The notes under the pieces: generated by a model | Databases searched by the model: none | What the model was told of the DNA's origin: nothing | What the model saw: only the letters and a program-made list of their open reading frames with translations | In this document: in pieces, positions 6,226 to 30,721 of the stretch | Layout: each line of letters opens with the position of its first letter | Position numbering within the stretch: position 1 is the stretch's first letter | Made by a program: the position numbers and the translations under genes | NCBI RefSeq assembly: GCF_000025925.1 | Contig: NC_014033.1 | Location: forward strand, 2,850,001-2,882,000 | From: Xylanibacter ruminicola 23 | GTDB lineage: Bacteria; Bacteroidota; Bacteroidia; Bacteroidales; Bacteroidaceae | Length of the DNA: 32,000 bases | Reading direction: 5' to 3'

Positions 6226-8613
6226 ATGAAAAAATCTAGATTTATCTTAGGAATACTGTCCTTGCTTGGATTGGCAGCCTGTTCCACAACAACAAGTACC
6301 CCACTCGACGAAACGCTGATTGACTATGTGAAGCCCAATCTGGGCACCGTTCACAGTCGTTGGTTCTTCTACACGCCCGCTGCCGAACCTTTCGGCATGG
6401 CCAAACTGGGCGCCTCGACCAATGGCACCTATGGCAACAATCAGGGATGGGAAGCCATTGGCTACGAGGATGGTCACACCTCTATCGACGGATTCCCCTG
6501 TCTGCACGAGTTTCAGGTTGGCGGCATCTCGCTCATGCCTGTTACAGGCGAGGTAAAAACGGTGCCTGGCAAGCTGGAGAAACCCGACGAAGGTTTCCGC
6601 TCGCGCTTCGACAAGGATAGCGAAACAGCTCATCCCGGCTACTATTCGGTACTGCTGAAAGACTATCAGGTAAAAACCGAACTCACAGCCACAACACGCG
6701 TGGGTTTCCAACGCTACACGTTCCCAGCATCCAGGTCGTCGCACATTCTGCTCAACATCGGTAACCGCCAGGGTGAGAGTGGCGCTGTGAAGGATGCCTA
6801 TATCCATCAGATCGACGGCAACACCATCGAGGGCTATGTGGTTACAGAGCCTGAATATGTGAAGAAATATCAGGCAGGCGCCACCGTATCGATGTATTTC
6901 TATGCTGTGCTCGACAAGGCACCTGCATCGGTAGATGTGTTTTATCAGGGCGACAGCCTGAAAGCCGGTACAGAGATTAAAGGTCCTGGTGCCATCATGA
7001 GTCTGAACTATACCACCCGTCAGAACGATCAGGTAAACGTAAAAATCGGTTTGTCGTACACCTCGATTGCCAATGCCAAGCTGAATCTGGAGACAGAGGC
7101 CAAGAACCTGACATTCGACGAGGCACTGGCTGCTACAACCCAGAAGTGGCACAAGGCCCTGAACCGCATCAAGGTATCAGGCGGCACGAACGACAACAAG
7201 ATCAAGTTCTACACAGGTCTTTATCACGTGCTGCTGGGCAGAGGAATTGCCAGCGATGTGAATGGCGCCTATCCCAAGAACGACGGCACCGTGGGAGTAA
7301 TCCCTGCGGGTAAAGACGGGAAACCTCTCCACAATCATTACAATACCGACGCCATCTGGGGCGCCTACTGGAACCTGACACCGCTATGGGCCATGGCTTA
7401 TCCTGAGTATTATAACGAGTGGGTGAACAGTCAGCTGCTGGTTTACAAGGATGCCGGCTGGCTGGGTGATGGCATTGCCAACAGCAAGTACGTGTCGGGT
7501 GTAGGCACCAATATGGTGAGCATCGCTATTGCAGGCGCCTATAACAGCGGCATTCGCGATTTTGATATAGCCACTGCCTACGAGGCTGCGCTGAAGAACG
7601 AGCTCTGCTCTGACAACCGTATCGAGGGTGCAGGAAAGATGGATGTGGGCCAGTTTGTAGAGAAGGGTTATGTACCCTTCGACGACAGCATCTTCTATGG
7701 CACACATCGTGGCGGATCTCAATTCTCGGTTTCTCATACCGTAGAGTATAGTTTCAGCGCCTATGCGGTAGCACAACTGGCCAAAGCCTTGGGCAAGGAG
7801 GCCGACTACAAGCAGCTGATGGCCCTCTCGAACGGTTGGACCAAGCTGTTCGACGACGATCTGAAGATGATTCGTCCGCGCGTGGCCAACGGCGATTTTA
7901 TCGATCATTTCAACCCATTGGAGTCGTGGCGCGGTTTCCAGGAGGGTAACGCCTTCCAATACACTTTCTTTGTGCCACAGAATCCTGAGGCATTGGTGGC
8001 CCGCATGGGTCAGGAAGAGTTTAATCACCGCCTCGACTCGGTCTTCACCGAAGCCCGAAAAACCATCTTTGGTGGCGGCAAGGTGGTGAATGCCTTCTCG
8101 GGTGTGGCCAGTCCGTATAATCATGGCAACCAGCCAAGTCTGCACATCCCCTGGCTGTTCAACTTCTCAGGCAAGCCTTATCTCACCCAGAAGTGGACCC
8201 GCCTGATTTGCGAGGAGTTCTATGGCACAACTGGCGAGCATGGTTATGGCTACGGTCAGGACGAAGACCAGGGCCAGCTGGGTGCCTGGTTTGTGATGGC
8301 AGCGATGGGCTTGTTTGATGTGCAGGGCGGTGCCTGCGAGCATCCTACCTATCAGCTGGGCAGTCCGCTGTTCGACAGAATCGAGATTCAGTTGAGCGAC
8401 AAATACGCATCGGGCAAGACGTTCGTTATCGAAACAGAAGGTAATGGCGCTGGTGCCAGCTATATCCAGTCGGCCGAACTGAACGGCAAAACCTGGAACA
8501 AGTGCTGGCTGTTCCGCGATGAGCTCTTCAAGGGTGGTGTACTCAAGCTCAAAATGGGCACTCAGCCCAATAACAACTGGGGACTGGAAGCACCCGTTCA
8601 TTGTCCGCAGTAA
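6226..8613 (+). CDS. GH92 family alpha-mannosidase, lipoprotein
   Basis: 795 aa with a lipoprotein signal MKKSRFILGILSLLGLAAC. GH92-typical blocks are present: HPGYYSVLLKDYQVKTELTATTRVGFQRYTF, FYTGLYH, YNHGNQPSLHIPWLFNFSGKPYLTQKW and YGYGQDEDQGQLGAWFV. Confidence 0.9.
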   Translation: MKKSRFILGILSLLGLAACSTTTSTPLDETLIDYVKPNLGTVHSRWFFYTPAAEPFGMAKLGASTNGTYGNNQGWEAIGYEDGHTSIDGFPCLHEFQVGGISLMPVTGEVKTVPGKLEKPDEGFRSRFDKDSETAHPGYYSVLLKDYQVKTELTATTRVGFQRYTFPASRSSHILLNIGNRQGESGAVKDAYIHQIDGNTIEGYVVTEPEYVKKYQAGATVSMYFYAVLDKAPASVDVFYQGDSLKAGTEIKGPGAIMSLNYTTRQNDQVNVKIGLSYTSIANAKLNLETEAKNLTFDEALAATTQKWHKALNRIKVSGGTNDNKIKFYTGLYHVLLGRGIASDVNGAYPKNDGTVGVIPAGKDGKPLHNHYNTDAIWGAYWNLTPLWAMAYPEYYNEWVNSQLLVYKDAGWLGDGIANSKYVSGVGTNMVSIAIAGAYNSGIRDFDIATAYEAALKNELCSDNRIEGAGKMDVGQFVEKGYVPFDDSIFYGTHRGGSQFSVSHTVEYSFSAYAVAQLAKALGKEADYKQLMALSNGWTKLFDDDLKMIRPRVANGDFIDHFNPLESWRGFQEGNAFQYTFFVPQNPEALVARMGQEEFNHRLDSVFTEARKTIFGGGKVVNAFSGVASPYNHGNQPSLHIPWLFNFSGKPYLTQKWTRLICEEFYGTTGEHGYGYGQDEDQGQLGAWFVMAAMGLFDVQGGACEHPTYQLGSPLFDRIEIQLSDKYASGKTFVIETEGNGAGASYIQSAELNGKTWNKCWLFRDELFKGGVLKLKMGTQPNNNWGLEAPVHCPQ

Positions 8614-19918: not shown

Positions 19919-20674
19919 ATGTTAGAGGTTAAGAACTTACACGCCAAGATTGGCGATAAAGAGATATTAAAAGGCATCGACCTCGTGATTAACGATGGCG
20001 AGACACATGCCATCATGGGCCCTAACGGTTCAGGAAAATCTACCCTGAGCGCCGTACTGGTGGGTAACCCACTTTACGAGGTGACCGAGGGCGAGGCTTT
20101 CTTCAACGGTAAGAACCTGCTGGAGATGAAGCCTGAGGACCGTGCCCACGAGGGTTTGTTCCTCTCGTTCCAGTATCCCGTTGAGATTCCAGGTGTATCG
20201 ATGACCAACTTTATGAAGGCTGCCATCAACGAGAAGCGCAAGTATCAGGGACTGGAGCCCATGAACGCTGCCGAATTCCTGAAACTGCAGCGCGAGAAAC
20301 GTAAGATTGTTGAGCTCGACTCGAAGCTGGCTAACCGCTCGGTTAACGAGGGTTTCAGCGGTGGTGAGAAGAAGCGCAACGAGATTTTCCAGATGGCTAT
20401 GCTGGAGCCCAAACTGAGCATCCTCGACGAGACCGACTCTGGTCTTGACGTAGATGCTATGCGTATTGTAGCCGAGGGTGTTAACAAACTGCAGACACCT
20501 GAGACTTCGTGCATCGTCATCACCCACTACGACCGTCTGCTCGAAATGATTAAGCCCCAGTTTGTACACGTGCTGTACAAGGGTAGAATCGTGAAGACTG
20601 GCGGTCCAGAGCTGGCTGTACAGATTCAGGAGCACGGCTACGATTGGATTAAGGAAGAAATAGGCGAGGAATAA
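19919..20674 (+). CDS. sufC: Fe-S cluster assembly ATPase SufC
   Basis: 251 aa. It has Walker A GPNGSGKST, the signature region FSGGEKKRNEI, Walker B LSILDETDSGLD and the H-loop ITHY. Confidence 0.95.
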   Translation: MLEVKNLHAKIGDKEILKGIDLVINDGETHAIMGPNGSGKSTLSAVLVGNPLYEVTEGEAFFNGKNLLEMKPEDRAHEGLFLSFQYPVEIPGVSMTNFMKAAINEKRKYQGLEPMNAAEFLKLQREKRKIVELDSKLANRSVNEGFSGGEKKRNEIFQMAMLEPKLSILDETDSGLDVDAMRIVAEGVNKLQTPETSCIVITHYDRLLEMIKPQFVHVLYKGRIVKTGGPELAVQIQEHGYDWIKEEIGEE

Positions 20675-22029
20675 TGAATAGCGAACAACAATATATTGAC
20701 CTCTATCAGCAGGCACGCGAGATGATTATCAAGCATGCCCCAGAGTCGATGAACGTGGTGCGCGATCAGGCCTTTGAGGACTTCCGCAAGCAGGGCTTCC
20801 CAACAAAGAAGGTAGAGCGATACAAGTACACCGATATGCAGAAGCTGTTTGAGCCCGACTACGGTGTGAACCTGAATCGCCTGCAGATACCTGTGGATCC
20901 CTACGAGGCTTTCCATTGCGACGTGCCCAACCTGAGCACAAGCCTGTACTTTGTGGTAAACGATATGTTCTACCACGACGACAAGCAGAAGGGTCACTTA
21001 CCTGAAGGCGTTGTGATCGGCTCTATGCGCGATTACCCTGAGCTGGTGAGCAAGTACTACACCAAGCTGGCTAAGACTGGTGAGGATGCCGTTACAGCAC
21101 TCAACACCATGCTGGCACAGGACGGACTGCTGGTTTACGTGCCCAAGAACGTGAAGGTGGATCGCGCCATTCAGGTGATTAACATCCTGAAGGCCACCCC
21201 ACAGAACGCGCAGCATGTAGTGACCGACCTGATGGTGAACCGTCGCGTGCTGATTGTACTCGAAGAGAGTGCCGAAATTAAAATGCTGTTCTGCGATCAT
21301 GCTGCCGACGACCGTAACTTCCTGGCCACACAGGTTATCGAGGCTTACGTAGGCGAGAATGCATCGTTAGACCTCTATTGCATGGAGGAGACGCATCATA
21401 AGAATGTACGCGTAAGCAACGTGTATATCGACCAGCAGGCCAACAGTCGTGTAAACCACAACGTCATCACCCTGCACAACGGTATTACCCGTAACAAGCT
21501 TGACCTGACCTTCAGTGGCGAGGGTGCCGAGTGCCAATGCTACGGATGTGTGATTGCCGACAAGCAGCAGCACGTAGATAACAACACGCTGATAGTTCAC
21601 AAGGTGCCTCACTGCAACTCGCAGGAGCTGTACAAATATGTACTCGACGAGAAGGCTACTGGTGCTTTTGCCGGTCGTGTGCTGGTTGAGCATGGTGCTC
21701 AGAAAACCACCTCGCAGATGACTAATCAGAACCTCACTGCCACCAAAGAGGCACGCATGTACACCCAGCCCATGCTGGAGATCTATGCCGACGACGTGAA
21801 GTGTGCCCACGGTTCGACCGTTGGACAGCTGAACGATGCCGCCCTGTTCTACATGCGCCAGCGAGGCATTTCATTACAGGAGGCTAAGGTACTGCTGCAG
21901 AACGCCTTTATCAACGAGGTTATCGACCACATGCAGTTAGAGCCACTGCGCGATCGCCTGCACTACCTGGTAGAGAAGCGATTCCGTGGCGAGCTGAACA
22001 AATGCTCAGGCTGCAAACTCTGCAAGTAA
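20674..22029 (+). CDS. sufD: Fe-S cluster assembly protein SufD
   Basis: 451 aa. The ATG overlaps the sufC TAA by 1 nt. The C-terminal beta-helix block is [36 protein letters not shown], typical of SufB/SufD. Confidence 0.9.
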   Translation: [451 protein letters not shown]

Positions 22030-22036
22030 AGGGTAT

Positions 22037-22068
22037 TAATGTTTAATCTTTCATGTTTAATGTTTAAT
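22037..22068 (+). repeat. 32-nt element (three ATGTTTAAT-like words) filling the sufD-sufS junction; a copy of 2146-2177 in inverted orientation
   Basis: TAATGTTTAATCTTTCATGTTTAATGTTTAAT. It contains both candidate sufS start codons, at 22039 and 22060. Confidence 0.8.
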
Positions 22069-23280
22069 CTAAATAAAGTACGCGAAGATTTCCCTATCCT
22101 GGGTCGCGAGGTATATAAAAAGCCGCTGGTTTATCTGGACAACGCGGCTACCACACAGAAGCCACTGATGGTGCTCGACGCTATGCGCGACGAGTATCTC
22201 AACGTGAATGCCAACGTGCATCGTGGTGTACACTACCTGTCGCAGCAGGCTACCGACCTGCACGAGGCGGCTCGCGAGGCAGTTCGTGGATTCATCAACG
22301 CCCGCAAGATAGAGGAGATTATTTTTACGCGTGGTACTACCGAGGCCATTAACCTGGTGGCCAGCTCGTTCTGCGAAAGTCAGATGCAGGCCGGCGACGA
22401 GGTGATTGTAACCGAGATGGAGCACCACTCAAACATCGTATCGTGGCAGTTACAGGCCATGAAGCGTGGCATTGTGGTAAAGCACATCCCCATTACCGAC
22501 GATGGTATCTTGTGTATCGACCAGCTGGAACAGCTCATCACTCCCAAGACCAAGATAGTTAGCGTGGCCCACGTAAGCAACGTGCTGGGCACCGTTAACC
22601 CTGTTGAACAGATAATCAAGATAGCCCACGCCCACAACATCCCCGTGCTGGTAGATGGTGCCCAGAGTGCGCCACACTTCAAGGTAGATGTTCAGGCGAT
22701 GGATTGCGACTTCTTTGCTTTCAGCGGACATAAGATGTACGGACCAACCGGCATCGGTGTGCTGTATGGAAAGGAAGAGTGGCTGGAGAAGTTGCCTCCC
22801 TATCAGGGTGGCGGCGAGATGATTGACAAGGTGACTTGGGAGAAGACCACTTTTGAGCGCCTGCCATTCAAGTTCGAGGCTGGCACACCCGACTATGTGG
22901 CTACCCACGGACTGTCTAAGGCCATCGAATATATCGATGCTATCGGCTTTGATGCCATCCAGCAGCACGAGCAGGAACTCACCCGTTACTGCATGGAGCA
23001 GCTGATGACCATCGACGGCATGAAGATCTACGGTCCGATGGATGCATCGAAGAAGGATGCTGTAGTATCGTTCAACGTTGGCGATATCCACCACCTGGAT
23101 ATGGGTACCCTACTCGACCGTCTGGGTATTGCTGTTCGTACCGGTCATCATTGTGCACAGCCATTGATGGACCGTTTGGGCATCTCAGGCACCGTTCGTG
23201 CCTCGTTCGCACTTTATAACACAAAAGAAGAGATTGATACCCTTATAGCGGGCATCCGTCGTGTGTCACAAATGTTCTAA
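22060..23280 (+). CDS. sufS: Cysteine desulfurase SufS (class V aminotransferase, group II)
   Basis: MFNLNKVREDFPILGREVYKKPLVYLDNAATTQKP aligns with the E. coli SufS N-terminus as I remember it (MIFSVDKVRADFPVL...YLDSAASAQKP), so I prefer the start at 22060 over 22039. The PLP lysine region is FSGHKMYGPTGIG and the active-site Cys region is RTGHHCAQP. Confidence 0.9.
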   Translation: MFNLNKVREDFPILGREVYKKPLVYLDNAATTQKPLMVLDAMRDEYLNVNANVHRGVHYLSQQATDLHEAAREAVRGFINARKIEEIIFTRGTTEAINLVASSFCESQMQAGDEVIVTEMEHHSNIVSWQLQAMKRGIVVKHIPITDDGILCIDQLEQLITPKTKIVSVAHVSNVLGTVNPVEQIIKIAHAHNIPVLVDGAQSAPHFKVDVQAMDCDFFAFSGHKMYGPTGIGVLYGKEEWLEKLPPYQGGGEMIDKVTWEKTTFERLPFKFEAGTPDYVATHGLSKAIEYIDAIGFDAIQQHEQELTRYCMEQLMTIDGMKIYGPMDASKKDAVVSFNVGDIHHLDMGTLLDRLGIAVRTGHHCAQPLMDRLGISGTVRASFALYNTKEEIDTLIAGIRRVSQMF

Positions 23281-27249: not shown

Positions 27250-27257
27250 CAAAATTA
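27250..27257 (-). promoter_or_regulatory. -7 promoter box TAATTTTG (minus strand) for the DMT transporter gene
   Basis: Plus-strand CAAAATTA, 34 nt upstream of the ATG at 27216. Confidence 0.4.
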
Positions 27258-27331: not shown

Positions 27332-27339
27332 TACTTTTG
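27332..27339 (+). promoter_or_regulatory. -7 promoter box TACTTTTG for the lipoprotein-rSAM pair
   Basis: Matches TAnnTTTG, 26 nt upstream of the ATG at 27365. Confidence 0.45.
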
Positions 27340-27364: not shown

Positions 27365-27847
27365 ATGAAAGTAAGATTCAATCGCTGGTACAACACCATC
27401 CTCACAGCCCTGCTGTCGCTGTTGGGCTATGGTTGCTCATCAGAGAATTCGATGGAGATGTACGGTCCGCCTATACTCATGTATGGCGTTCCCTCGGCCG
27501 AGTATAAGATATCGGGCACTGTTACCGACGAGGGCGGCAAGGCCGTAGAAGGCATCAAGACATCAGTGAAACAAGTAACAAACTATGAGGGCAAGCCCAT
27601 AACGTTTGCCATCGACTCTGTACTGACTGATGCCAACGGCCACTACGATATGACATCAACCCACTTCCCCCAAAGTCCGGAAATCAAGTTGATTGTTGAG
27701 GATGTGGATGGCGATACCAATGGTGCCTACCAGAACGATACCATCGACATTAACTACAACAACGCCCAGAAGGTAAAAGATGGCGAAGGCACTTGGAACA
27801 ACGGCACTTTTACGATTAAACAGGATATTAAACTGAAGAAGAAATAA
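27365..27847 (+). CDS. Radical SAM-associated putative lipoprotein
   Basis: 160 aa with a lipoprotein signal ending LLSLLGYG-C (Cys24). The mature N-terminus has a duplicated MYGPP/MYGVP motif, followed by a beta-rich segment YKISGTVTDEGGKAVEGIKTSV that resembles a carboxypeptidase-regulatory-like fold. The stop overlaps the ATG of the rSAM gene by 1 nt. Confidence 0.7.
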   Translation: MKVRFNRWYNTILTALLSLLGYGCSSENSMEMYGPPILMYGVPSAEYKISGTVTDEGGKAVEGIKTSVKQVTNYEGKPITFAIDSVLTDANGHYDMTSTHFPQSPEIKLIVEDVDGDTNGAYQNDTIDINYNNAQKVKDGEGTWNNGTFTIKQDIKLKKK

Positions 27848-28932
27848 TGAAGCCAACTCCCCTTACCCTTCGCAAAAAGTTAGCTTTAGAACTCTGGCGA
27901 CAGAAGGAAGAAATGGTACGCAAGGAACATCCCCTGAAACAACTGTTCTGGGAGTGTACGCTACGTTGCGACCTCAAATGCAGGCATTGTGGTAGCGACT
28001 GTAAGATGAAGTCCGACAGTAGGGATATGCCTAAGGAGGATTTCCTGCGTGTTCTCGATGGAATCGCTAAAAAGACTGACCCTCACAAGGTGTTTGTCAT
28101 CATATCGGGTGGCGAACCGCTGATGCGTCAAGATATTGAGGAGTGCGGCCGTGCGATATACGACAAGGGATTCCCCTGGGGAATGGTTACCAATGCGCTG
28201 CATCTTACACCCCAGCGCTGGCAGAATCTGCAACGTGCCGGTATCCATTCGATGGCCATCAGTCTGGATGGCTTAGAGGATAACCACAACTGGATGCGCG
28301 GCAACACACACAGCTTTCAGATGGTGAGCAATGCCATCGATATGCTGGTAGCCACCAAAGGGTTTGTGTTCGATATCGTGACCTGCGTAAACCGTCGTAA
28401 CTATACGCAGCTGAACGACATTAAGGAATTCCTGATTTCAAAAGGTGTACAGCGCTGGCGATTGTTTACTGTTTTTCCAGTAGGTCGTGCGGCTCTCGAT
28501 CCTGATATGCGCCTAACCAACGAGCAGTTTCGCGGGGTGTTTGATTTTATTCGTGAAACAAGAAAAGAAGGACGCATCCGTGCCGATTATGGTTGCGAGG
28601 GATTTCTGGGCAACTACGAAGGCGAGGCCCGCAGCAGGTTCTTTAGCTGTCAGGCCGGCATTACCGTAGGCTCAGTGATGGCCGATGGCTCGATAGCTGC
28701 TTGTGCCAGCATACGTGCCGACTATCATCAGGGCAACATCTACGAGGATGACTTTATGGAGGTTTGGGAGAACCGCTATGCCCCCTATCGCAATCGCGAA
28801 TGGATGCGCAATGGCGAGTGCAAGGACTGCAAATACTTCCGCTATTGCCAGGGCAACGGCATGCACCTACGCGATGCTAACGGCGAACTTCTGCTGTGCC
28901 ATCTGAAGCGCTTACAGCAGGCTGCTGATTAA
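27847..28932 (+). CDS. Radical SAM / SPASM-domain protein
   Basis: 361 aa. CDLKCRHC is the CxxxCxxC rSAM cluster and ISGGEPLM is the SAM-binding GGE motif. The C-terminal Cys-rich region (CQAG...DGSIAACASIR...GECKDCKYFRYCQGNG) is SPASM-like. Confidence 0.85.
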   Translation: MKPTPLTLRKKLALELWRQKEEMVRKEHPLKQLFWECTLRCDLKCRHCGSDCKMKSDSRDMPKEDFLRVLDGIAKKTDPHKVFVIISGGEPLMRQDIEECGRAIYDKGFPWGMVTNALHLTPQRWQNLQRAGIHSMAISLDGLEDNHNWMRGNTHSFQMVSNAIDMLVATKGFVFDIVTCVNRRNYTQLNDIKEFLISKGVQRWRLFTVFPVGRAALDPDMRLTNEQFRGVFDFIRETRKEGRIRADYGCEGFLGNYEGEARSRFFSCQAGITVGSVMADGSIAACASIRADYHQGNIYEDDFMEVWENRYAPYRNREWMRNGECKDCKYFRYCQGNGMHLRDANGELLLCHLKRLQQAAD

Positions 28933-29110
28933 CTCCTATAGAATCGCTCTCAGCATTTCTGAAAGCTACACTTAGACTATCTGCCATCTCCTCACGATAG
29001 TCACAAGGTTTTGTACCATAACAAGCAGTAAACACAAATGCCACAGAACTGAAACCCAGCAGCGTCAGCATCTTGTTAATGGCCTTAAGTTTAAACATCT
29101 TTATATTCAT
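28877..29110 (-). CDS. Small putative lipoprotein (77 aa), hypothetical
   Basis: MNIKMFKLKAINKMLTLLGFSSVAFVFTA-C is a lipoprotein-type signal. The ATG forms an ATGA overlap with the murQ stop, which suggests translational coupling. The 3' 56 nt overlap the rSAM gene end antisense. I know of no recognisable family. Confidence 0.45.
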   Translation of the reverse strand: MNIKMFKLKAINKMLTLLGFSSVAFVFTACYGTKPCDYREEMADSLSVAFRNAESDSIGVNQQPAVSASDGTAEVRR

Positions 29111-29919
29111 AGTTTTTGTTTTAGTACAACATCAACGCTCCCTGCAGCTAATAATCTCTGACGGGCTTCGTCGTAACTGATACCGAGTTCGTCGGCAATC
29201 ATGCGGGTGCCTCGGTCTATCAATTTCTCGTTAGTAAGCTGCATCTTTACCATACGATTACCCTCTACACGCCCCATGCGAATCATCAAGGCAGTAGAAA
29301 TCATATTCAGAACCATCTTTTGGGCAGTACCGCTCTTCATACGGCTGGAACCAGTTACAAACTCTGGGCCGACAATCGTCTCTATGGCATACTCAGCGGC
29401 AGCAGCCAAAGGCGTATGAGGATTGCTGGTAATACAACCTGTAAGCAAACCCTGCTTACGAGCTCCCTTGATGGCACCAATCACGTAAGGTGTGGTACCA
29501 GAGGCTGCAATACCTATCACCGTATCATCGGCGGTAGGCTGATAGCGCATCAGGTCGTTCCAACCCTGCTCCTTATCGTCCTCGGCACGCTCTACAGCGC
29601 GTCGTAAGGCCTCGTCGCCACCAGCAATCAAGCCTATCACCCAATCGGGCTGTACACCAAAAGTTGGTGGCAGCTCGCTGGCATCAAGCACGCCTAAACG
29701 ACCGCTGGTGCCCGCACCCACATAGAACAGTCGGCCACCGCGTTTCATTCTTGGTTCGATGGCCAGCACCAGTGTCTCTATCTGCGGCAGCACGCGTCCC
29801 ACAGCCTCGGCTACCAACCTATCCTCCTGGTTGATGCTCCTCAGCACCTCGCCTACCTCCATCTGCTCCAGATGGTCGTAATGCGAAGCCTGCTCTGTGA
29901 TCTTATCTTCAATCCTCAT
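29107..29919 (-). CDS. murQ: N-acetylmuramic acid 6-phosphate etherase
   Basis: The start is trimmed to MRIEDKITEQASHYDHLE (ATG 29919); the longer ORF-track start would overlap the GH16 gene. SIS-domain motifs are FYVGAGTSGRLGVLDASE, GIAASGTTPYV and TGSSRMKSGTAQKMVLNMIST. Confidence 0.85.
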   Translation of the reverse strand: MRIEDKITEQASHYDHLEQMEVGEVLRSINQEDRLVAEAVGRVLPQIETLVLAIEPRMKRGGRLFYVGAGTSGRLGVLDASELPPTFGVQPDWVIGLIAGGDEALRRAVERAEDDKEQGWNDLMRYQPTADDTVIGIAASGTTPYVIGAIKGARKQGLLTGCITSNPHTPLAAAAEYAIETIVGPEFVTGSSRMKSGTAQKMVLNMISTALMIRMGRVEGNRMVKMQLTNEKLIDRGTRMIADELGISYDEARQRLLAAGSVDVVLKQKL

Positions 29920-29926
29920 GTGCGTA

Positions 29927-30721
29927 TTATTTTTTCTGGTACACACGTACATAATCAATCTCGTAACGCATAGGGAAGGCAGCGTTATCGATGGTACCAC
30001 CATTATCGCCACCTAAGGCCAGGTTCAGAAGGATATACTGCGGACGGTTGAAGGGATTGGTATATTGGCCAATCTTACCGTTCTGCGTGCTACTGAGAGG
30101 AATCTCGTTCAGCAGCTCATCATCCAGATAAAGTCGGATAGCCATTTCGTCCCAGTCCATACGCCATATATGAAAATGCTGGGCCCATGCAGGGTCTTTC
30201 TCTGTAAAATGGGTAAACGGTGTTTTCTTGCTATTCCACACAGCCTTGTAAGGCTGGTCGTTACCCCAACAGGCATTGGCTAAGATATGAGGCACTCCAT
30301 TGATACGGTAATACTCCATCAAATCAATCTCGCCACACGAGGGCCAAGGCATGTCGTTGCCTAACGTCCAGATGGCAGGCCAGGTACCACCAGCGGTTGG
30401 GATGCGGGCGCAAACCTCCAGTCGTCCGTACAGGAAACTGTACTTACCTTTGGTATTTAAACTGGCCGATGTATAGGGAATACCCTCACGACCAGTTTCC
30501 TGGCGAGCCTCAATCACCAGCATACCATTGTGCAGGTAGGCATTATCTGCCTGATACCACTGAGCTTCGTGGTTACGCACAAATCCCTGCTCATAGCCCC
30601 AGATGGTGCTATCAGGGCGCCCGTTACCATCAAACTCATCGGCAAAAACCAGCTGATACTCCTGTGCCACAAGGGGCACAGCAAGCATACCAAGCAGCAA
30701 CGACAGTAAAACCTTTCTCAT
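29927..30721 (-). CDS. GH16 family glycoside hydrolase (beta-glucanase/laminarinase-like), secreted
   Basis: 264 aa with signal MRKVLLSLLLGMLAVPLVAQ. LVFADEFDG, WPAIWTLG and the catalytic GEIDLMEY (E-I-D-x-x-E) are GH16 hallmarks. Confidence 0.85.
   Translation of the reverse strand: MRKVLLSLLLGMLAVPLVAQEYQLVFADEFDGNGRPDSTIWGYEQGFVRNHEAQWYQADNAYLHNGMLVIEARQETGREGIPYTSASLNTKGKYSFLYGRLEVCARIPTAGGTWPAIWTLGNDMPWPSCGEIDLMEYYRINGVPHILANACWGNDQPYKAVWNSKKTPFTHFTEKDPAWAQHFHIWRMDWDEMAIRLYLDDELLNEIPLSSTQNGKIGQYTNPFNRPQYILLNLALGGDNGGTIDNAAFPMRYEIDYVRVYQKK

Follow-up and report, generated by a model that had tools for sequence, protein, structure and literature searches.

Our analysis shows that two coupled genes in the 32-kb stretch of Xylanibacter ruminicola DNA examined here (the window) are a member of the Bacteroidales radical SAM (rSAM)/lipoprotein module TIGR04133 + TIGR04134. 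This module is very common in gut and rumen Bacteroidales, yet its function is blank in annotation. The conservation of the lipoproteins strongly supports a short x-Y-G-x-P motif as the target of the rSAM enzyme, and as a candidate chemistry, newly proposed here, we infer tyramine splicing at X-Y-G. Taken as a whole, the model of pre-export tyramine splicing of YG lipoproteins by the rSAM enzyme has, in our estimate, an even chance of being right.

The proposed substrate gene (27365..27847, + strand; ORF list, NCBIfam) encodes a 160-aa protein of the family TIGR04134, 'radical SAM-associated putative lipoprotein', and the proposed maturase gene (27847..28932, + strand; ORF, NCBIfam, Pfam) encodes a 361-aa rSAM/SPASM protein of the family TIGR04133, the predicted splicease. 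A sequence-only reading of the same DNA had described the two genes as coupled, and both ORFs as well as the 1-nt overlap are borne out, the TAA of the lipoprotein gene (27845-27847) having base 27847 in common with the ATG of the rSAM gene. The pair's own promoter box, also claimed there, could be located by a pattern search as TACTTTTG at 27332..27339 (+ strand), 26 nt 5' of the lipoprotein ATG. It fits TAnnTTTG, which we take, from the known Bacteroides consensus, to be the Bacteroidetes-type -7 box, and is the putative promoter of the pair; the window holds 35 matches to this pattern vs. 16.4 expected. The DMT transporter named in that reading is indeed a divergent neighbour here, but it is not a conserved partner, since DMT/EamA genes are found in only 5 of 81 loci, and a neighbour census ruled out a conserved link to an EamA transporter, MurQ or Suf genes.

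Each of the two proteins exceeds the curated cut-off of its NCBIfam model; thus, the pairing has already been catalogued, with its function left blank. The lipoprotein matches TIGR04134 with 124.9 bits (cut-off 39.8, E 2.7e-36; residues 4-159 on model positions 1-150 of 150), and the rSAM protein matches TIGR04133 with 580.7 bits (cut-off 425, E 8.5e-175; residues 8-357 on model positions 1-350 of 350). TIGR04133 (rSAM_w_lipo), TIGR04134 (lipo_with_rSAM) and the JGI 'rSAM/lipoprotein system' denote the same family, the names of the homologues match, and the product name given in the sequence-only reading is exactly that of NCBIfam. The two models are 'hypothetical equivalogs', and neither assigns a substrate residue, a chemistry or a role. 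Literature searches on TIGR04133/TIGR04134 returned only a citation of TIGR04134 for T9SS type B C-terminal domains, which is unrelated and apparently a slip, and none of the literature found joins radical SAM, SPASM, lipoprotein and Prevotella.

The rSAM protein possesses all the motifs that had been read from its translation (CxxxCxxC, GGEPLM and a SPASM-like Cys cluster), and both NCBIfam and Pfam make it an rSAM/SPASM protein: both Radical_SAM (PF04055, 69.4 bits) and SPASM (PF13186, 30.8 bits) are matched above their gathering scores. The radical SAM [4Fe-4S] motif CDLKCRHC (C41-x3-C45-x2-C48; 27967..27990, + strand) is invariant in our alignment of the enzyme (A1), and the SAM-binding motif SGGEPLM occupies residues 87-93. 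The SPASM region for auxiliary Fe-S clusters (28594..28899, + strand), identified from the translation, Pfam and A1, has seven C-terminal cysteines, C250, C268, C286, C325, C328, C334 and C351, all invariant in 21/21 homologues; the SPASM pattern itself is matched by C268-x12-G-x4-C286 and C325-x2-C328-x5-C334. The enzyme is conserved far more strongly than the lipoprotein, its homologues being 78-98% identical. None of the solved structures found by a PDB sequence search with the enzyme is closely related, the best matches being BlsE, PqqE, SkfB and anSME (E 1e-11 to 1e-6), and in an AlphaFold2 model from a shallow alignment (mean pLDDT 57.7) residues 8-27 form an additional N-terminal helix, predicted with low confidence.

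Bacterial lipoproteins follow a PROSITE PS51257-type pattern: a basic N-terminus is followed by a hydrophobic helix and then by a lipobox whose last residue is Cys. The 160-aa protein has the basic residues K2 and R4, a helix predicted by AlphaFold2 at residues 2-19 and the lipobox L20-G-Y-G-C24, and with these features it is predicted to be a lipoprotein and an Lgt/Lsp substrate; together with the score against TIGR04134, the lipobox upholds its earlier reading as a lipoprotein. The signal peptide (27365..27436, + strand), defined by the AlphaFold2 helix and by conservation, contains a family-specific LLG[F/Y] element along with the lipobox Cys24 and is also the proposed leader. Homology searches yielded 379 lipoprotein homologues, and 1510 cluster representatives at E<=1e-3. 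The beta-sandwich-like body suggested before is likewise found in the AlphaFold2 model (mean pLDDT 90.6, body >90), in which strands start at residue 44; together with a weak match to Pfam PF13620, this points to a transthyretin-like/CarboxypepD_reg-like beta-sandwich at residues 44-160 (27494..27844, + strand). A Foldseek search with the model returned only generic transthyretin-like sandwiches (dioxygenase cores, pilins; TM<=0.5), matches that are silent on function.

Chance adjacency of the two genes was rejected. Among 80 rSAM loci taken at species level, 73 are adjoined by one or more ORFs that combine a signal peptide, a Cys and xYGx(x)P, 61 have an adjacent lipoprotein as judged by HMM, and five have no partner within 3 kb of the rSAM gene. 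The adjacency is conserved across families of Bacteroidales and 1- or 4-nt overlaps of the two genes recur in Prevotella relatives; the conserved pairing speaks for the interpretation given in the sequence-only reading. At least 580 module hits were confirmed in one-genome-per-species contigs, and the reciprocal association was looked at on four contigs. The motif is present in 91/170 signal-peptide-like ORFs near the rSAM gene vs. 4/119 elsewhere in the same loci, and LG[FYI], at a spacing from the Cys that varies between 3 and 11 residues, in the signal peptides of 80/91 partners vs. 0/119 control ORFs. The neighbour census (81 loci) detected no other conserved gene, the next commonest family being found in at most six loci, and no conserved gene for a Y protein or RRE nearby. 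Short proteins of 53-96 aa make up 28 of the 91 distinct partners and lack the beta-sandwich, showing that an association with the rSAM enzyme does not require this domain. These short partners include a C-Y-G class, a coiled-coil class ending in ...VVYGPRP and others in which YGPP is repeated; one locus (L052) holds as many as five partner genes, and rSAM clades track partner classes, indicating co-diversification. All that the partner sequences have in common is the LLG[F/Y] signal peptide, the lipobox Cys and the YG-P motif, and it is the enzyme, not the fold, with which the motif travels.

In the window lipoprotein the motif occurs twice. Site 1, M32-Y33-G34-P35-P36 (X-Y-G-x-P; 27458..27472, + strand), is an optional upstream copy, while site 2, M39-Y40-G41-V42-P43 (27479..27493, + strand), is the predicted modification site; both lie within a flexible tether of the AlphaFold2 model, with a pLDDT of about 58-65 at site 1. 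An alignment of 80 diverse lipoprotein homologues (A2; mean column identity 33%) contains only six invariant columns, G21, C24, Y40, G41, P43 and G92, and L20 is at least 90% conserved. Moreover, xYGxP is present in 125 of 133 diverse representatives (50% clustering), as one copy in 105 and as two in 20. The duplication of the MYG-P motif noted earlier is therefore real here but is not a general feature, and the domain-proximal copy (site 2) appears to be the sole universal one. These data agree with the idea of the MYG-P segment as the substrate, as Y40, G41 and P43 are among the six invariants and the motif is kept where the beta-sandwich is absent. In a logo of 106 sites from the 91 partners, in which Y and G are fixed by the search pattern (independent support coming from alignment A2), position -1 is E in 43, M in 29, L in 13, V in 9 and C in 7, and position +3 is Pro in 91; one partner, in locus L076, is an exception, with YA replacing YG. 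In full-length lipoproteins YG-x-P immediately precedes the first beta-strand, and two-domain lipoproteins have one copy per domain. Possibly, its conservation is thus partly structural.

We propose that the cytoplasmic rSAM/SPASM enzyme would act on the unfolded pre-lipoprotein before Sec export, by analogy with anSME and exported sulfatases; anSME (AtsB/ChuR), also an rSAM/SPASM enzyme, modifies a short protein motif in the cytoplasm before export and offers a precedent for 'modify, then export'. The target would be the invariant x-Y-G-x-P in the tether that links the beta-sandwich to the lipidated Cys. Judging by the motif, the most likely chemistry would be the splicease reaction, in which Tyr loses a tyramine equivalent (C8H9NO, 135.07 Da) and its carbonyl becomes linked to that of the residue before it; this would turn M39-Y40-G41, and perhaps also M32-Y33-G34, into an alpha-keto-beta-methionine-Gly ketoamide. 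The prediction is directly testable as a loss of 135.07 Da at the named residues, M32-Y33-G34 and/or M39-Y40-G41, and we consider it evenly poised between true and false. The signal peptide with its LLG[F/Y] element, which we here newly suggest to be leader-like, would probably serve as the leader, and the general Lgt/Lsp pathway would then export the protein, remove the leader and anchor the product; such a route would account for the absence of a dedicated protease, transporter or RRE gene alongside the pair. A ketoamide on an anchored, probably surface-exposed tether might plausibly be a protease-inhibiting or -trapping warhead, although this is speculative. More broadly, we can tentatively imagine, while holding it rather doubtful, a RiPP-like route via lipoprotein export, with the signal peptide as leader and signal peptidase II as leader peptidase, which would yield lipid-anchored 'lipo-spliceotide' proteins and short lipopeptides (30-70 aa once cleaved) with an internal alpha-keto-beta-amino acid; dominant Bacteroidales of gut and rumen would display them on their surface or outer-membrane vesicles, where they could inhibit serine or cysteine proteases in a covalent-reversible manner or trap them. 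If the splicing model is true, membrane-anchored proteins of prominent commensals of humans and animals would join secreted peptides of cyanobacteria and proteobacteria as carriers of ribosomal beta-amino-acid/ketoamide chemistry, a common Sec/Lsp signal peptide would turn out to act as leader for a maturase, this long-standing pair of 'hypothetical equivalog' models would gain a function, and protein engineering would gain a compact single-enzyme, short-tag tool.

Spliceases belong among the rSAM enzymes and carry a SPASM domain (PMC11002830, PMC10849128). Their native sites are MYG and LYG, within cores such as PIRP-L-YG-LP-I and AVAA-M-YG-VVFP (PMC11414181, PMC10533398, PMC11626197, PMC9811515), and a strict Tyr-Gly with a free X is the hallmark of their substrates (PMC11414181, PMC11626197, PMC9811515); for binary spliceases the leader helix suffices (PMC11414181). 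Like PlpX/PlpY/PlpA, PcpX, RhaX/RhaA, RcsX and RasX, the pair described here combines an rSAM/SPASM enzyme with an adjacent ribosomal X-Y-G substrate. The sites in splicease substrates are often followed by x-P (LYGLP), as are those here, multiple precursor genes can occur in both, and splicease systems include binary ones without an RRE protein as well as enzymes that act on proteins and not only on peptides. There are also differences: the substrates here are Sec/Lgt/Lsp lipoproteins, whereas splicease precursors are of Nif11/NHLP type; there is no PCAT or other leader protease here, and the product would remain lipid-anchored; and X is mostly Glu here, in contrast to the native Met or Leu, with no documented example of Glu at X in the splicease literature searched. 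No literature joining splicease and lipoprotein was found. A 2022 survey by Scott et al. (Chem 8:2659) reportedly covered 27 characterised and 939 predicted splicease systems, among which the TIGR04133 family may be included. PlpX aligns with the window rSAM protein over its full length (E 2e-24) at only about 26% identity, and the chemistry is thus inferred. Against the PlpX family model TIGR04103 the window rSAM protein scores 119.7 bits (cut-off 725) and is not a member of TIGR04103/IPR026482; in turn, TIGR04133 ranks fifth (103 bits) among the NCBIfam matches of PlpX. Since the window enzyme scores 120-137 bits against AhbD, NirJ2, TIGR04053 and MftC, and PlpX is no closer than these, homology does not single out splicing.

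We weighed the possibility that the same pair and the same site undergo another reaction, such as a Tyr C-C or C-O crosslink (cyclophane- or PqqE-like), hydroxylation, epimerisation or another change of Tyr or Gly, a reading to which we give appreciable weight while holding it unlikely. The conservation data alone do not specify the reaction, most SPASM peptide maturases characterised so far are crosslinking enzymes, MftC, PqqE, WgkB, DynA and PapB are among the HMM matches of the enzyme, and Pro at +3 would favour a turn. MftC (122.6 bits) and PqqE (82.7 bits) are SPASM enzymes that attack a Tyr of a small ribosomal precursor encoded nearby. Both depend on an RRE protein (MftB, PqqD) that the rSAM/lipoprotein loci lack, and their motifs (C-terminal VY; E-x3-Y) differ from x-Y-G-x-P. 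Invariance in the motif is limited to Y, G and P, and no second conserved side chain could take part in a crosslink; position +2, where three-residue cyclophanes have their acceptor, varies widely (T, P, S, V, C, A), with Gly in a few cases (YGGP, loci L059 and L075). The strict Tyr-Gly with free X is, in turn, what is expected of spliceases.

It is improbable, in our view, that the enzyme acts on a small molecule or cofactor in the manner of AhbD or NirJ, the lipoprotein being a non-substrate partner, such as a periplasmic protein that binds or carries the product, and YG-x-P structural. The heme-modifying NirJ2 and AhbD (130 bits each) are among the best-scoring characterised families, and the position of YG-x-P next to the first strand, once per domain, would suit such a role. 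Outside its own family the enzyme scores highest against AhbD, NirJ2 and TIGR04053 (130-137 bits), which PlpX matches too, all belonging to one SPASM sub-group, and the AhbD/NirJ score of 130.3 bits is far below the cut-off of 500. The substrates of AhbD and NirJ are tetrapyrroles rather than proteins, and no tetrapyrrole genes were found in the rSAM neighbourhood; nor is any further biosynthetic or transport gene conserved there. The rSAM enzyme is cytoplasmic while its partner is exported, the domain-less partners retain only the signal peptide and YG-P, and multi-copy partner arrays exist. An anSME-like maturation of a sulfatase or similar protein encoded elsewhere, with an incidental lipoprotein, was rejected as very improbable: although anSME, likewise of the rSAM/SPASM type, has exported Bacteroides proteins as substrates and is weakly similar in HMM and PDB searches (4k37, E 8.7e-07), it forms a separate family (TIGR03942, 59.2 bits vs. 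a cut-off of 349.45), so that the clustering which the sequence-only reading had held against its own proposal is not seen, it acts on C/S-x-P-x-R, a motif absent from the lipoprotein, to yield formylglycine, its gene does not form a coupled pair with that of its substrate, and the lipoprotein adjoins the rSAM gene in 73/80 loci across Bacteroidales families.

In the splicing model, a 77-aa lipoprotein with a C-Y-G site would be the second substrate. Its ORF (28877..29110, - strand), a candidate substrate gene newly recognised here from its sequence and its homologues, reads ...LLGFSSVAFVFTA-C30-Y31-G32-T-K-P35..., is convergent with the rSAM gene and overlaps its 3' end by 56 nt. The site C30-Y31-G32-T33-K34-P35 (29006..29023, - strand; TGT TAT GGT ACA AAA CCT) has the lipobox Cys as X; for partners of this C-Y-G class splicing would fall on the lipidated Cys itself, which may clash with Lgt/Lsp processing. 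The 77-aa protein has 39 homologues and is annotated 'Lipoprotein' in Xylanibacter ruminicola, and within the 32-kb window the bipartite signature is found only in this ORF and in the 160-aa one. It aligns with the short partners upstream of the rSAM gene in loci L017, L020, L021 and L022, and the invariant positions of this alignment are L15, L18, G19, S22, F27, A29, C30, Y31, G32, P35 and D44.

Our comparative data narrow the predicted target of the radical SAM (rSAM) enzyme to x-Y-G-x-P together with a leader-like signal peptide, and point to a specific, falsifiable chemistry; they support the overall interpretation of the sequence-only reading, namely a lipoprotein matured by the enzyme encoded next to it. 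The coordinates proposed there for the 160-aa lipoprotein gene (27365..27847, + strand) and the 361-aa rSAM/SPASM gene (27847..28932, + strand) were exact, base 27847 being common to the TAA of the former (27845-27847) and the ATG of the latter. The lipoprotein starts with a basic stretch, followed by a hydrophobic helix and the lipobox L-G-Y-G-C24, and carries two motif copies, M32-Y33-G34-P35-P36 and M39-Y40-G41-V42-P43. The enzyme contains the CxxxCxxC motif noticed earlier (C41-x3-C45-x2-C48) as well as GGEPLM, its Pfam matches to Radical_SAM (69.4 bits) and SPASM (30.8 bits) both exceed the cut-offs, and its seven C-terminal cysteines (C250, C268, C286, C325, C328, C334 and C351) are all invariant among 21 homologues. 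In NCBIfam, the lipoprotein matches TIGR04134 (124.9 bits vs. a cut-off of 39.8), whose title, 'radical SAM-associated putative lipoprotein', agrees with the one given in the sequence-only reading, and the enzyme matches TIGR04133 (580.7 bits vs. 425). Since both genes match these models, each graded a 'hypothetical equivalog', their co-occurrence has already been curated, without an attached function; JGI names it 'rSAM/lipoprotein system'. Within this catalogued family, which has no characterised member, the pair is in no way unusual. At protein level, the window shows ~97% identity to Xylanibacter (Prevotella) ruminicola.

Scanning a set in which each species is represented by a single genome yielded at least 580 confirmed relatives of the enzyme, and 80 loci at 60-97% identity were kept, drawn from Prevotella, Phocaeicola, Bacteroides, Alistipes, Paludibacteraceae, Muribaculaceae and Cryptobacteroides. 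When searched with an HMM built from the 160-aa lipoprotein, 61/80 loci showed a copy adjoining the rSAM gene, located 5' or 3' of it and at times present as two or three in tandem; gene overlaps of 1 or 4 nt were repeatedly seen in the Prevotella group. Under uniform motif scoring, 73/80 loci have one or more neighbouring ORFs that combine a signal peptide and a Cys with xYGx(x)P (hereafter, partners), confirming by HMM search and neighbourhood census that the pairing is conserved; two of the remaining seven loci are truncated by a contig end, and L076 is another of the seven. The motif occurred in 91/170 signal-peptide-like ORFs near rSAM vs. 4/119 elsewhere in the same loci. In the sole YA-for-YG variant seen, the L076 lipoprotein downstream of rSAM (7073-7399) ends in LLYAVPNVPY. 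No gene family beyond rSAM and the partners was present in more than 6/81 loci, hence the module is self-contained and includes neither a protease nor a transporter or RRE. The rSAM clades of an NJ tree match the partner classes, and within the same relatives the enzymes are 78-98% identical vs. ~50-57% for the partners. In a reciprocal check of four contigs, three motif-bearing lipoprotein homologues adjoin rSAM. The fourth contig, L083 (147-1094), encodes two tandem TIGR04134-like paralogues lacking the YG motif ('GEPYADF', 'IDCPYKRL'), and no rSAM gene is present on its 2 kb, which include only 146 nt of upstream sequence; this single case fits co-dependence of motif and enzyme.

Among 80 diverse lipoprotein homologues (mean column identity 33%), only G21, C24, Y40, G41, P43 and G92 are invariant, and L20 is conserved in at least 90%. 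The xYGxP motif lies within the first 75 residues in 125/133 full-length representatives (50% clustering), as one copy in 105 and two in 20. In a logo of 106 sites, whose Tyr and Gly were preset by the search pattern, the preceding residue (X) is E in 43, M in 29, L in 13, V in 9 and C in 7, position +2 is variable, and Pro occupies +3 in 91/106. The signal peptides carry a second element, LG[F/Y/I], found in 80/91 partners vs. 0/119 control ORFs; it is not simply the lipobox, because 3-11 residues separate it from the Cys. In the window's clade the signal peptide MKVRFNRWYNxxLTALLSMLGYGCS is almost invariant, whereas the whole proteins are ~50% identical. The AlphaFold2 model of the lipoprotein (mean pLDDT 90.6) comprises a helix (2-19), a flexible segment (20-43) in which the two MYG sites lie, and a beta-sandwich predicted with confidence (44-160), in line with the body anticipated from sequence; Foldseek matches to this model were limited to generic transthyretin-like sandwiches. 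Part of the YG-x-P conservation could be structural, since the motif abuts the first beta-strand, and proteins with two domains have one copy for each. On this comparative evidence, we consider it quite probable that the YG-P site would be the rSAM substrate, modified in the cytoplasm ahead of Sec export.

Spliceases are rSAM enzymes that cut a tyramine equivalent from X-Y-G; PlpX, PcpX, RhaX, RcsX and RasX remove C8H9NO (135.06 Da) in this way (PMC11414181, PMC10533398, PMC11626197, PMC9811515). An invariant Tyr-Gly, a free preceding residue and an adjacent rSAM/SPASM gene form the splicease signature, and we therefore propose splicing, giving even chances that the reaction would be tyramine excision. 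Native splicease sites are MYG and LYG (PMC10533398), and the PlpA cores, ...PIRP-L-YG-LP-I and AVAA-M-YG-VVFP... (PMC10533398), have an X-Y-G-x-P flavour like that of the lipoprotein sites. Binary spliceases work without a Y/RRE protein, their leader helix being the activator, and folded proteins with inserted tags can also be spliced (PMC11414181). A PlpX query taken from the machine-read text of a published supplement aligned with the window enzyme over its full length (26% identity, E 2e-24), and its NCBIfam ranking was TIGR04103, TIGR03913, AhbD, TIGR04053 and then TIGR04133 (103 bits), which places both enzymes in one SPASM sub-group. The window enzyme lies outside the PlpX family (TIGR04103, 120 bits, far under cut-off), and homology by itself does not single out splicing; our literature search found no documented example of Glu, the commonest X here, in a splicease site. 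A possible though less favoured alternative is that the enzyme acts on this site by different chemistry, for instance crosslinking or hydroxylation. Residues 1-28 of the enzyme (27847-27930) include a conserved helix at ~8-27, LRKKLALELWRQKEEMVRKE, in a low-confidence model. PlpX lacks this helix, the BLAST alignment beginning at residue 23, and it might stand in for the activating helix of PlpY or of a splicease leader.

Because accessory genes are missing and an LLG[F/Y] element is present, the signal peptide may double as leader, with Lgt/Lsp in place of a dedicated protease and exporter. Compared with characterised systems, what would be new is that a protein maturase of the rSAM/SPASM type, probably a splicease, makes use of the lipoprotein pathway. 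In the papers that our literature search covered, spliceases are nowhere linked to lipoproteins, and a 2023 review on how RiPP leaders are removed brings up neither lipoproteins nor signal peptidase. As far as PMC10533398 and PMC10849128 relate, Scott et al. (2022) mined all rSAM-SPASM proteins of UniProt reference proteomes for YG-rich neighbours and tallied 27 systems as characterised and 939 as predicted, across 189 genera; these may already include this family. More speculatively, a ketoamide on an anchored tether could act as a protease-directed warhead, since spliceotides, the splicease products, are reported to inhibit proteases (PMC11626197, PMC9811515).

Most loci outside the 61 HMM-positive ones encode short lipoproteins without the beta-sandwich, still with Tyr-Gly-x-Pro; 28/91 distinct partners are 53-96 aa long. 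These include an 'FMAC-YGPAP' class (L017, L020-22), a coiled-coil class ending '...VVYGPRP' (L023, L026, L034, L058, L065), and 'DLYGPPVLYGPP' and 'MYGPPLAMYGPPMYGPP' (L057 and L080). In C-Y-G partners, splicing would involve the very Cys that is lipidated. The locus L052 (5098-7289) resembles a RiPP precursor array, with five partner genes (71-81 aa) around a single rSAM, four in tandem upstream and one downstream, each bearing LG[FIL]..C plus VYGPPP, EYGTP or LYGVRP. Such domain-less partners and arrays argue against an rSAM acting on a small molecule with the lipoprotein as accessory, which we regard as unlikely. Together with the invariance of Y40, G41 and P43, the motif kept by domain-less partners supports the earlier suggestion that the MYG-P segment may be the substrate. 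The genome RUG209 has two rSAM paralogues whose partners differ in class, a C-Y-G short lipoprotein 5' of one (L021) and a coiled-coil '...VVYGPRP' lipoprotein ~1 kb downstream of the other (L034), beyond an EamA gene.

A 77-aa lipoprotein, ...KMLTLLGFSSVAFVFTA-C30-Y31-G32-T-K-P35... (28877..29110, - strand), is a second candidate substrate. Its gene converges on rSAM, the 3' ends overlapping by 56 nt (28877-28932), and the ORF is an annotated gene, called 'Lipoprotein' in X. ruminicola; its 39 homologues extend down to 59% identity. The protein can be aligned with the short partners upstream of rSAM in L017 and L020-22, leaving L15, L18, G19, S22, F27, A29, C30, Y31, G32, P35 and D44 invariant. 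Within the 32-kb window, the bipartite signature occurs only in this ORF and the 160-aa gene, both flanking rSAM; in the relative L081, the pair of MurQ and small lipoprotein is inverted, the latter lying on the rSAM strand behind MurQ. The window enzyme scored far under the cut-offs of TIGR04053 (137 bits), NirJ2 and AhbD (130 each) and MftC (123), and with only 59 bits for anSME, likewise far under its cut-off, an anSME-like enzyme that adjoins the lipoprotein incidentally is highly improbable.

A TAnnTTTG box precedes the lipoprotein gene (27332-27339, + strand) and another belongs to the divergent EamA gene (27250-27257, - strand); the whole window contains 35 occurrences vs. 16.4 expected from shuffles, consistent with a Bacteroidetes genome using such a -7 promoter box. 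The Fe-S cluster assembly genes sufD (20674-22029) and sufS (22039-23280), which together with the ORFs from ~17113 are probably parts of a suf operon, map 4-10 kb upstream of rSAM; their proximity to an Fe-S enzyme is probably coincidence, since suf genes are not conserved beside rSAM elsewhere. The MurQ-like SIS protein, listed as a 301-aa GTG-started ORF (29107-30012, - strand) overlapping a GH16 gene (29927-30721) by 86 nt, probably starts at an internal ATG (MRIEDK...), because its relatives are ~270 aa long (L002, L081).
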